From: an uncultured Staphylococcaceae bacterium
GTDB taxonomy: Bacteria > Bacillota_I > Bacilli_A > RFN20 > CAG-826
Assembly: GCA_964392865.1 (NCBI GenBank)
Contig: CAYMRJ010000001.1
Coordinates: 7,037 to 71,036, forward strand
DNA: 64,000 bases
Direction of reading: 5' to 3'
The position numbers and the translations under genes were made by a program. The notes below the pieces were generated by a model. That model did no database searches, had not been told where the DNA came from, and saw only the letters and a list, made by a program, of their open reading frames with translations. Shown here piece by piece: positions 6,204 to 8,653 of this stretch. Every line of letters begins with the position of its first letter. Position 1 is the stretch's first letter.

Positions 6204-6959
6204 ATGAAGAGACTCCTTGCTTCTTCCCTGCTCCTGCTTGGCTTGCTTTGCGCCTGCGGAGGCGAGGAAGAGATAACAAGCGAAAGCCAATCCTACCGGG
6301 AAACCGTCATCGCCAATATCGAAGCGATGCCTCTTCCCGACTATGCGGTGGCGACCGCATGGACGACCATCGACGAAATCCAAGGCGATGACGCAAACGG
6401 CTATCTCGATATCTATAGCGAAATCCTGACCACGGCTTATTTCGATCTAAAAGAAGGCACCGCCCATATCGATGCCGTCCTTACGGCTCAGATAGATACC
6501 CTCGATTCCGAAGGCAATGCCACCCTCAGTGCCGAAATGGTAGGCACCGAACTCATGTGGATCTTCAAAGATGAAACGAGGGGAACCTTGGAAGCCTATG
6601 ACGTAAGCCTAATAGGTCCCGGCGACTTCACCTACGAAGACAAATGGTACGCCTCCTCTGAGAGTAGCGCCGAAGAGCTCTACCGCTCGATTGCCTTGAC
6701 TCCCACCGAAGTCTTCGAAAGCGGCGGCGATTTCACCGTCACCCTCATCGACCACGATCCCTATTACCTCTACATCCGCCAAAGCGACGAGAACGGGAGC
6801 ATGTCGGCCTTATACGAAGATGGCTATCTCCGGAGAATCGTCATGGAAAGCGAGAGCCAAAGCATCACCTTCGCCTTCGATTATCCCGAAACCCTCGAAA
6901 TCGAATTGCCCGATATCGATGACGGAACCTGGAACGAAGGGATCTACGAAGAGTTCTAA
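6204..6959 (+). CDS. Lipoprotein, unknown function
   Basis: Signal peptide with lipobox LLCAC-GGEEE. ATG lies 2 nt after the mrp-like stop. Asp/Glu/Tyr/Thr-rich mature part. Confidence 0.8.
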   Translation: MKRLLASSLLLLGLLCACGGEEEITSESQSYRETVIANIEAMPLPDYAVATAWTTIDEIQGDDANGYLDIYSEILTTAYFDLKEGTAHIDAVLTAQIDTLDSEGNATLSAEMVGTELMWIFKDETRGTLEAYDVSLIGPGDFTYEDKWYASSESSAEELYRSIALTPTEVFESGGDFTVTLIDHDPYYLYIRQSDENGSMSALYEDGYLRRIVMESESQSITFAFDYPETLEIELPDIDDGTWNEGIYEEF

Positions 6960-6973
6960 AGAGCTTCCCTAAT

Positions 6974-7003
6974 AGAAAAGTCGGCCCGAAGGCCGACGTT
7001 TTC
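6974..7003. terminator. Bidirectional intrinsic terminator
   Basis: Stem GTCGGCC / GGCCGAC (6980-6986 / 6991-6997), loop CGAA. T-runs on both strands (GTTTTCA on plus, TTTTCTATT on minus). Sits between the convergent genes 6204..6959 and 7012..7173. Confidence 0.7.
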
Positions 7004-7011
7004 ATCGCTTG

Positions 7012-7173
7012 TTAGCGGGGTCCACCTCCGCCGCCAGGGCCTCCCCCTCCGGGTCCGCCGCCAGGGCCGCCCGGGCCTCCGCCCGGTCCGCCGGGTCCGC
7101 CGTGCCCATGGGGGCCGTGCATGTGTCCGGGGTGCGGATGATGGTGATGGTGATGACGATGCCAGAAGCACAT
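7012..7173 (-). CDS. 53-aa His-run / Gly-Pro-repeat microprotein (not in ORF track)
   Basis: Hand translation: MCFWHRHHHHHHPHPGHMHGPHGHGGPGGPGGGPGGPGGGPGGGGPGGGGGPR*. AAGGAGGG lies 7 nt upstream of ATG 7173. The ORF starts 36 nt downstream of the SDR stop. TAA at 7012-7014 is followed by the 6980-6997 terminator. Confidence 0.6.
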   Translation of the reverse strand: MCFWHRHHHHHHPHPGHMHGPHGHGGPGGPGGGPGGPGGGPGGGGPGGGGGPR

Positions 7174-7209
7174 ATTCAGTCCCTCCTTTTCACAATCCTT
7201 ATTATATCA

Positions 7210-8001
7210 TCAATTCAAAGCCGCGCCCCCATCGACGTTGAGGGATTGGCCGGTAATGTGGTTGGCGTATTCCGAGCATAGGAAAAGGACGGCATAGGCG
7301 ATGTCCTCGGGCCTTTGATCTCCCCTTTCGAGTGGGATGAAGGTCTTGAGGCTTTCCTTCCAAGCCTCTTCCCTATCTTTTCCGCCTTCTTCGTAGGCAT
7401 CGAGGATCTTCTCCCACATCGGCGTGCGGATGATGCCGGGGCAGACGGCATTGACGTTGATGTTATAAGGTGCGCCTGCAAGGGCGGCGGCCTGGGTCGT
7501 ATAGATAACGGCGGATTTGGTCATGCCGTAGTGAGCAAAGCCCTCCTTCAGGGCATGGCGGCCGGCAAAGGAAGAAATATTGACGATCTTCCCTTCTATC
7601 CCTAGTTCGATCATGTGCTTCATGGCGGCTTGGCAGCCGTTATTTACGCCCATGAGGTTCACATCGATAAGCTTGCGGATTTCCTCTCGGCTTGTTTCTA
7701 GGAAGGAGTTCAGGCCGACGATGCCGGCATTGTTAATGACGATATCGAGGCGACCGGTTTCTTTGATGGCTTTGAGGAAGACGGCGTCTACGGATTCGTA
7801 ATTTCCGACATCTGCAACGCACGGTTCGGCTTTGAGGCCGGCGGCTTTCAGGCCGTGACAAAACTCTTTGGCCTTCTCTTCCAATAGGTCGGCGACGTAG
7901 ACGGTAGCCCCGCCCTTGGCAAGTTCGGTGGCTATAGCTTGGCCGATGCCGCGGCCGGCACCGAAGACGACTGCTGTCTTTTTCGGGAAGGTTATATCCA
8001 T
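7210..8001 (-). CDS. Short-chain dehydrogenase/reductase (SDR) family oxidoreductase
   Basis: Cofactor motif GAGRGIG, NNAG, catalytic YGMTKSA (YxxxK). Confidence 0.9.
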   Translation of the reverse strand: MDITFPKKTAVVFGAGRGIGQAIATELAKGGATVYVADLLEEKAKEFCHGLKAAGLKAEPCVADVGNYESVDAVFLKAIKETGRLDIVINNAGIVGLNSFLETSREEIRKLIDVNLMGVNNGCQAAMKHMIELGIEGKIVNISSFAGRHALKEGFAHYGMTKSAVIYTTQAAALAGAPYNINVNAVCPGIIRTPMWEKILDAYEEGGKDREEAWKESLKTFIPLERGDQRPEDIAYAVLFLCSEYANHITGQSLNVDGGAALN

Positions 8002-8620
8002 AGGTCCAACATTCCTTTCCTTACAACTTGAGTATATAGAAAGTTAAAAGTTCGGTCTTTGATTACGCTCGGCGAGGATTTGGTGAAAGCGCCTTTGAAG
8101 GAGAATAAATGGCATAGTGAGATGAATTGATTGCTATCGAAATGCCATAAAATTCTTAGAGCCAATTTAACGGATTCTTGCCTTTAAAGACTGTCTGAAA
8201 CCAGATTTCTCCAACGAGGCAGTCTTCGATAACGAGTGGCCTTCATAGATAAAGTGCCGTGCCACTTAATCAAACAGTCCAGGACTATCCCTTCCATTCG
8301 TGGAGAAGCTTTCCATTCCAAAAAGATTTCCTTGTCGTATTTGGAAAAGGTAATTAAGGATCATTTATAGGTGTGTCTTTAAAGGAACTTTAATCCTATT
8401 TGTCCAATAGTATAGCCAGTGATGGATTCCATATCTGGTAACTGCTAGCCATGGGACTAGAAATTTATGGGGCCTTCATTACAAATGGCATTTCAAAACT
8501 GGCATGAGCTATGCCCAAGCGAGCTCCGGATGGCCGCCATTGTCGAGCCTCCAATTAGGTAAAGGGCAGCTTGCCTTTGGCCTAGCGAAGGACAACACCC
8601 CTACCGCCAGAACTGGAAGA

Positions 8621-8653
8621 TTTTAAAAAGCCGGCCTCTTCCGAAGACCGGCT
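8621..8653 (-). terminator. Intrinsic terminator after the CBS gene
   Basis: Stem AGCCGG...CCGGCT (8629-8653) with inner pairing, followed on the minus strand by TTTTTAAAA. Confidence 0.65.

Follow-up and report, generated by a model that had tools for sequence, protein, structure and literature searches.

An orphan small ORF for a probable His-rich microprotein with a Gly/Pro tail in accessory DNA of an uncultured Staphylococcaceae bacterium

The window analysed here, a stretch of 64,000 nucleotides from an uncultured Staphylococcaceae bacterium, carries on its minus strand an ORF of 53 codons that, together with its TAA stop, occupies positions 7012..7173 (ATG at 7173, TAA at 7014-7012). 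When the coordinates of this ORF, put forward in an earlier sequence-only reading of the window, were re-read, all of them proved correct. The encoded peptide, MCFWHRHHHHHHPHPGHMHGPHGHGGPGGPGGGPGGPGGGPGGGGPGGGGGPR, has a mass of 5.0 kDa and a calculated pI of 10.4, and its 53 residues include 24 Gly, 12 His, 10 Pro and one Cys, with no acidic residue; Lys is also absent, and Arg occurs only as R6 and R53. Codons 5-24 (7102..7161) form a His-rich segment, HRHHHHHHPHPGHMHGPHGH, that holds all 12 His (23% of the peptide), encoded by six CAT and six CAC codons. Codons 25-53 (7015..7101) form a Gly/Pro tail of 21 Gly, 7 Pro and 1 Arg with the form (G2-5 P)x7 then R, encoded by degenerate 9- and 21-nt repeats. 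The count on the translation bore out the earlier description, which placed 12 His among the first 24 residues and GnP repeats after them. Runs of five or more His, searched for in any frame of the whole genome, were found in this ORF only, and the same was true for (GnP)x3 repeats. AlphaFold2 predicted no secondary structure for the peptide (pTM 0.16). The product is probably an intrinsically disordered His-rich peptide that is lineage-specific and expressed.

The ORF lies within a compact set of putative expression signals, which in order of reading are TGATATAAT, 11 nt, AAAGGAGGG, 7 nt, the ATG, 53 codons, the TAA, 14 nt and a terminator. The box TGATATAAT (7201..7209, minus strand) resembles an extended -10 promoter, a signal additional to those of the sequence-only reading, and overlaps the second of two tandem TGA stops that close the upstream gene, an SDR oxidoreductase gene; the sequence directly after the SDR stop reads TGA-TGATATAAT, in such a way that the TG of the second in-frame stop and the following TATAAT make up a perfect extended -10. 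The predicted transcription start falls at about 7192-7195, leaving a leader of about 20 nt. The Shine-Dalgarno sequence (SD) is the 9-nt AAAGGAGGG (7181..7189, minus strand), 7 nt upstream of the ATG, and it includes the strong SD AAGGAGGG (7188-7181) that had been claimed at that spacing. Past the TAA, a bidirectional intrinsic terminator with a 7-bp stem, a UUCG loop and a T-run was found at 6971..6997 (minus strand), its hairpin at 6997-6980 reading GTCGGCC-UUCG-GGCCGAC before the T-run. The ORF does have a terminator of its own, as had been proposed, at a distance of 14 nt, and the same hairpin also ends a convergent lipoprotein gene (6204-6959) on the opposite strand. Co-transcription with the SDR gene, held to be probable in the sequence-only reading, is plausible, the two genes not being separated by a terminator; to this must be added that the ORF has a promoter-like box of its own. 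The RNA fold of the ORF region was not unusual (z = -1.25), with the one terminator hairpin, and a search of this region against Rfam gave no match.

The predictive value of these signals was assayed on the 1.03-Mb genome. On both strands, 11 TGNTATAAT sites were found, eight of them intergenic, and all eight of the latter precede genes (this ORF counted), several of them leaderless. The arrangement TATAAT, 8-40 nt, GGAGG, 4-10 nt, ATG occurs eight times genome-wide, and six of the seven sites other than the present one start ORFs of 117-484 aa, among them the glyceraldehyde-3-phosphate dehydrogenase gene. An SD plus ATG is by itself weaker evidence for a gene, since 48 of the 144 AGGAGG+ATG sites in the genome, about a third, head ORFs of <60 aa. 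Elsewhere in this genome (G000), TGNTATAAT boxes stand only 12-19 nt before start codons, for example at C1:56216(+), C1:103615(-), C16:7929(+) and C32:735(-), and many of its mRNAs therefore appear to be leaderless or nearly so. At C27:1229(+), a TGNTATAAT box is not followed by an ORF and may mark an RNA gene.

The codon pattern was then compared between frames. In the 87-nt tail, all 11 A/T bases fall at codon position 3, and each of the 29 codons has G or C at its first two positions; the chance of all tail A/T bases falling in any one phase is about 2e-5, a figure that is less extreme if the repeat units are not independent. Synonymous codons are mixed (two for His, four for Gly, three for Pro), the differences among repeat copies being synonymous changes or whole-codon indels only, and GGA is over-used in the ORF compared to the genome (~36% vs. 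14%). As the tract is composed of degenerate repeats with periods of 6, 9 and 21 nt, its 3-nt periodicity may be partly inherited from these units rather than selected. Other frames of the GC-rich stretch are also open. Those of the same repeat shown in the ORF track are, as had been pointed out, two in number; they are Arg/Ala-rich and without SDs, and one of them crosses the terminator. On the antisense strand, the frame of equal periodicity lacks a start codon and meets stops within the His region. Only the 53-codon frame combines third-position periodicity with both a start and a stop codon, and the sequence evidence supports this His/Gly/Pro frame as the correct one, well signalled for expression. 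An alternative genetic code was also considered and rejected, as the three stop codons are used about equally, which indicates the standard code.

The SDR gene upstream (7210..8001, minus strand; Pfam adh_short_C2, 1.2e-56) is in the same frame as the ORF, the ATG of which lies ~36-39 nt past the SDR stop with the tandem TGA TGA between them; the 36 nt given before for this distance was confirmed. Both genes are part of a block of ~1.65 kb (6998..8625, boundaries approximate) placed between the lipoprotein gene and a CBS-domain gene that has its own terminator in the window. The remainder of the block is an AT-rich, ORF-free spacer of 576 nt (8045-8620; 37-41% GC) between the CBS terminator and the SDR promoter. 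In the genus relative G009, the order is lipoprotein gene, one hairpin, CBS gene and TetR gene, with 48 nt between the lipoprotein and CBS genes. Judged by this synteny, the block is an accessory insertion that the corresponding locus in G009 lacks. No convincing att-like repeats flank the insertion, and blastn-short against the genome itself gave no match that could be the source of the ORF. A stretch of the His region (7128-7143, CATCATCCGCACCCCG in the sense direction) matches the SDR gene at 7420-7435, where the reading frame differs, in 15 of 16 nt; chance alone would give ~0.02 matches of this quality per 2 kb, and the match is too short to interpret.

The SDR gene has no close orthologue in the genus genomes. 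The nearest orthologues examined, at 74-79% identity, were found in other MAGs in six different neighbourhoods, a distribution by which the SDR gene is classed as horizontally mobile single-gene cargo. At all six loci the likeness to the window ends precisely with the stop codon of the SDR gene, and a His or Gly-Pro ORF is absent from the DNA that follows; a called 50-aa gene after one of these orthologues, tried as a counterpart of the ORF, was unrelated and variable. Because the similarity ends at that stop codon and such an ORF is absent there, the ORF is assigned to the accessory DNA and not to the conserved SDR module. In one of the six neighbourhoods, the SDR orthologue (76% identity) has a phage-type integrase and an AAA ATPase with DUF4143 next to it; the ENA metagenome contigs concerned (L069-L071) diverge abruptly ~60 nt past the SDR stop, a pattern that points to a recombination hotspot or a cargo junction. 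DUF4143 genes are also present in the window, at 1-2782.

Relatives of the peptide were searched for at several levels. The exact peptide sequence was absent from a collection of 15 billion proteins, a word-indexed search of 5.8 billion proteins (E<=0.1) gave no match, phmmer returned 0 matches among 1.84 billion representative proteins (E<=0.001), Pfam and NCBIfam gave no match even at E<=10, and none was found in the PDB. A six-frame (tblastn-type) search of 77 other genomes of the genus gave only two off-frame chance matches, over ribosomal-protein and ClpB genes, and blastn against plasmids and phages gave no match. As low complexity blinds alignment programs, codon-degenerate patterns were added to the alignment searches for this low-complexity peptide. 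The pattern H5..GPGGP was found in none of 400 other genomes of the order, and CFWHRH6 with free third positions in none of the JGI metagenome contigs, in which the pattern SD..H6..GPGGP gave six matches, all of them off-frame collagen-like repeats. Among ~186,000 species representatives, H5..GPGGPG occurs at 27 places, none of them a small free-standing ORF, and a search for related loci in species-representative genomes matched 600 pattern stretches, none of which was confirmed. The ORF is accordingly best described as an orphan, with no relative at any level searched. The sequence-only reading had proposed to judge the ORF by conservation of its frame in relatives, but none of the searches turned up a relative.

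Another genome of the same genus (G051) contains a second orphan small ORF, of 56 aa (L043:1489-1659), that begins with the His-run MFFCHHHHHHFHHHHFPFFF and continues with a hydrophobic helix. It is preceded by the SD AAGGAGG at 7 nt and is surrounded by AT-rich accessory DNA, with a Phd/YefM-like ORF close by. Searches gave no homologue of this His-run/transmembrane ORF, and a relationship with the present microprotein was rejected, the likeness being at the level of composition only (z = 0.35). Other His-runs of the genus are located in the linkers of 400-440-aa proteins that look by eye like COG0523-type GTPases, at the N-termini of ~530-aa membrane proteins (MTEEKEHHHHHHH...) and in one LarC-like protein (L044, L050-L054; L040-L042, L046; L048); none of these is present in G000.

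The Gly-Pro tail had been thought to have no precedent, which was wrong, as a His-run followed by GPGGPGG recurs as an appendage in three protein settings. In the first of them, it follows the transmembrane helix in a conserved group of small mycobacterial and other actinobacterial proteins; in the others, it forms the N-terminus of a Massilia PadR regulator, or belongs to the post-membrane tails of TPM_phosphatase-domain proteins in a Faecalibacterium MAG and a horse-gut Clostridia MAG. The order H5-10, scattered HxH, GPGGPGG repeats is common to all of them and to the microprotein, but all of those proteins carry the module joined to a folded domain or a transmembrane helix, whereas the microprotein is free-standing behind its own start codon. 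Alignment of the microprotein to the module proteins gave z = 2.4-3.2 against block shuffles, values that are biased because the comparators were chosen by the shared pattern. As these scores are only modestly above shuffles and the comparators were so selected, the module-bearing proteins are read as analogues of the microprotein and not as its relatives. The recurrence of such modules in unrelated proteins indicates that the combination of a His-run and GPGG is tolerated and reused in cells.

The mycobacterial group (L016-L019, L021-L023, L026, L028-L034, L038 and L039, from Mycobacterium and other Actinomycetota) consists of conserved proteins of ~120-150 aa with one transmembrane helix, then GHHGGHHHHHKH...MGGPGGPGG and a Pro/Ala-rich tail; the one member tested against Pfam (L023) gave no match. 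The Massilia proteins (L014 and L035) are PadR-family regulators extended at the N-terminus by 10-13 His in a row and then HGPGGPGGHHGRGRGPGG, and this extension may be a metal-sensing appendage.

Short His-rich proteins such as Helicobacter Hpn bind and buffer Ni, Zn and Cu, and a His-rich N-terminus of the kind found here should, on chemical grounds, chelate Ni, Zn, Cu or Co. It is the composition of the peptide that suggests a metal-binding role. The metal genes that had been noted nearby were confirmed (they encode an exporter-like protein of the ArsP_2 type, an ATPase of the Mrp/NUBPL type and, as copA, an HMA P-type ATPase), but the tie drawn to them did not hold: since the ORF lies in the accessory insertion absent from the G009 locus and the exporter, Mrp and copA genes are conserved, the closeness is probably accidental. 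The inserted block itself contains no metal genes. The Ni-handling families PF02492 (CobW/HypB/UreG-type), PF01969 (LarC) and PF01891 (CbiM/NikM) were not found in G000 (93.8% complete), which makes a role in nickel storage like that of Hpn unlikely; this genome has one CDF exporter. Of the metal-binding or storage peptide proposed before, chelation is thus supported on chemical grounds, while the case for Hpn-like nickel storage is weakened. Buffering of Zn or Cu is the better guess, made from chemistry only.

The explanation that we prefer, tentatively and at a little short of an even chance, is that the ORF is an orphan gene making a disordered peptide, the His head of which chelates divalent metals, with cytosolic buffering or sequestration as the outcome, and the Gly/Pro tail of which is a flexible spacer. 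Transcription would proceed from the extended -10 promoter of the ORF, with read-through from the SDR gene in addition, translation would start from the strong SD, and the transcript would end at the shared hairpin. Chelation would be the work of the N-terminal 24 residues (12 His and one Cys), with Zn, Cu or Ni as the most plausible of the divalent transition metals, and the Gly/Pro tail would remain flexible and unfolded. The likeliest effect in the cell would be cytosolic metal buffering or sequestration, Hpn-like in its working and unrelated by descent. Hpn and Hpn-2 offer a precedent for small His-rich metal proteins that are confined to one lineage. Points against this reading are that no homologue was found at any level, that the periodicity may be partly inherited from the repeats, that other frames are open, that GGA is over-used, that the inserted block has no metal gene and that Ni-handling genes were not found in the genome. 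The anatomy of the ORF, the rarity and predictive value of its signals, its codon periodicity and its uniqueness are observed, whereas translation, binding of metal in vivo and a benefit to the cell are inferred.

The same ORF could instead be a neutral proto-gene or junk ORF, to which we give a substantial chance, well short of even. Triplet-type slippage (CAYCAY, GGNGGNCCN) in the 3' flank of the horizontally acquired SDR gene would have produced an ORF that is maybe transcribed and translated, that has no selected function and that will decay. Such an origin agrees with an ORF that is a strict orphan, unique in the genome, the genus and the order, with its location in accessory DNA, with tandem repeats that are short and degenerate and have periods divisible by 3, and with the several frames open in the GC-rich tract, and the third of AGGAGG+ATG sites that head ORFs of <60 aa points in the same direction. 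It is harder to reconcile with the perfect extended -10, the 9-nt SD and the ATG at correct spacings, which are very unlikely together by chance (the -10 alone is expected ~3e-4 times per 60 nt), with repeat copies that differ only synonymously or by whole codons, and with the absence of nonsense or frameshift damage. It is also conceivable, and we think unlikely, that the ORF is a recent de novo gene, in which codon-sized repeat expansion beside a newly acquired gene gave rise to a free-standing "natural His-tag plus elastomeric Gly-Pro tail" that recruited a promoter, an SD and a terminator and would have a metal-dependent phenotype (e.g. metal-triggered self-assembly or buffering).

That the ORF is a relic of the low-complexity appendage of a larger donor gene, having arrived with the SDR gene and been cut off from its domain, is quite unlikely. 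It could derive from a membrane protein with a TPM domain, by way of the cytoplasmic tail, or from the N-terminal extension of a PadR regulator, as the order H6, HxH, GPGGPG is common to the Clostridia and Faecalibacterium TPM tails and the Massilia PadR (z = 2.4-3.2, scores biased by the selection of comparators on the shared pattern). The 3' end of the ORF also resembles the tail of a Cthe_2159 protein of the genus relative G002 over 40 nt at 88% identity, but this match is no better than composition predicts (z = 0.5). The TPM domain is absent from G000 and rare in the genus, where a few weak TPM-like matches are without such tails, and a native relic of a TPM, PadR or Cthe_2159 tail was rejected as unsupported. 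Nor is there a coding remnant upstream, where the SDR stop is ~36-39 nt away, the far side of the SDR gene being AT-rich and ORF-free, and a promoter, an SD and an ATG are unexpected inside a gene. Highly improbable, finally, is a cis-acting element, be it an attenuator or leader peptide that senses His, a structured 3' UTR belonging to the SDR mRNA or a His-tail added to the SDR enzyme by read-through. In having 12 His codons within a short frame and a terminator after it, the ORF recalls the hisL attenuator, but there is nothing downstream to regulate except the antisense strand of the convergent lipoprotein gene, and the fold (z = -1.25) and the Rfam search speak against a structured element. 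Read-through would be favoured by the shared frame and the short distance from the SDR stop, but it would have to pass two consecutive TGA stops, and the SDR orthologues end at the same residue.

If the preferred reading is right, and the peptide is made and binds metal, it would be an independent, non-homologous addition to the small class of His-rich bacterial metal buffers, and it would imply that such proteins can arise as single-genome orphans skipped by annotation pipelines. The His-run with a Gly/Pro linker stands alone here and is an appendage in no fewer than three protein types that are unrelated to one another; it may be a metal-binding module that can be reused. Should the de novo reading be true, a bacterial gene birth would have been caught at the orphan stage, and if the ORF is only a neutral proto-gene, it would be a clean case of complete expression signals gathering around a repeat-derived ORF. 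Either way, a single uncultured genome is concerned, so the reach of the finding is limited.

Several known classes were compared with the microprotein. A bacterial metallothionein (SmtA/BmtA) or another curated small metal-binding family was rejected, as there was no Pfam or NCBIfam match at E<=10 and the peptide has one Cys, and so was a collagen-like (Gly-X-Y) protein, as the Gly residues stand in runs of 2-5 between single Pro and not strictly at every third residue. A RiPP precursor was discarded as well: the only partner is the SDR gene, and the six orthologous SDR loci are without such an ORF. Membership among the TPM tails or PadR extensions is at odds with a stand-alone ORF bounded by stops in a genome that lacks the TPM domain. 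Like the ORF, hisL is short, with several His codons in direct succession and an intrinsic terminator behind them. However, the enterobacterial hisL precedes the his biosynthesis genes and forms alternative RNA hairpins, whereas the present ORF is the last unit ahead of a convergent gene and shows no conspicuous alternative structure; with only the lipoprotein gene following, the fold at z = -1.25 and no Rfam match, it was not assigned to the hisL-type attenuators.

A chemical parallel is found in the prion octarepeat (PHGGGWGQ) and in histatin-type His-rich peptides, in which His followed by Gly lets the imidazole and backbone amides coordinate Cu(II). The HGHGG and HGP motifs of the microprotein would permit coordination of Cu(II) like that of the prion octarepeat, the analogy being chemical only. 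The prion and histatin proteins are eukaryotic, extracellular or membrane-anchored, and unrelated to the microprotein.

The closest comparison is with Hpn and Hpn-2 (Hpn-like), which buffer and store Ni (PMC4671568, PMC8704837) and were acquired only by gastric Helicobacter (PMC4671568). The microprotein was not placed among them, as it has no detectable similarity to them (no sequence relationship, with 0 phmmer matches among 1.84 billion proteins), its His are confined to residues 5-24, and no Ni uptake or maturation genes were found. Hpn contains ~47% His, with Cys pairs and Glu/Gln, whereas the microprotein, at 23% His, has a single Cys, lacks acidic residues and ends in a Gly/Pro tail of 29 residues. 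Hpn and Hpn-2 serve Ni enzymes, whereas the urease and hydrogenase maturation and Ni-uptake genes were not found in the genome of the microprotein. In other respects they are alike, as all of them are small (60-72 aa for Hpn and Hpn-2), cytosolic (presumably so in the case of the microprotein), restricted to a lineage and very rich in His, which form runs of six or seven, and all are unstructured without metal and missed or left unnamed by family libraries.
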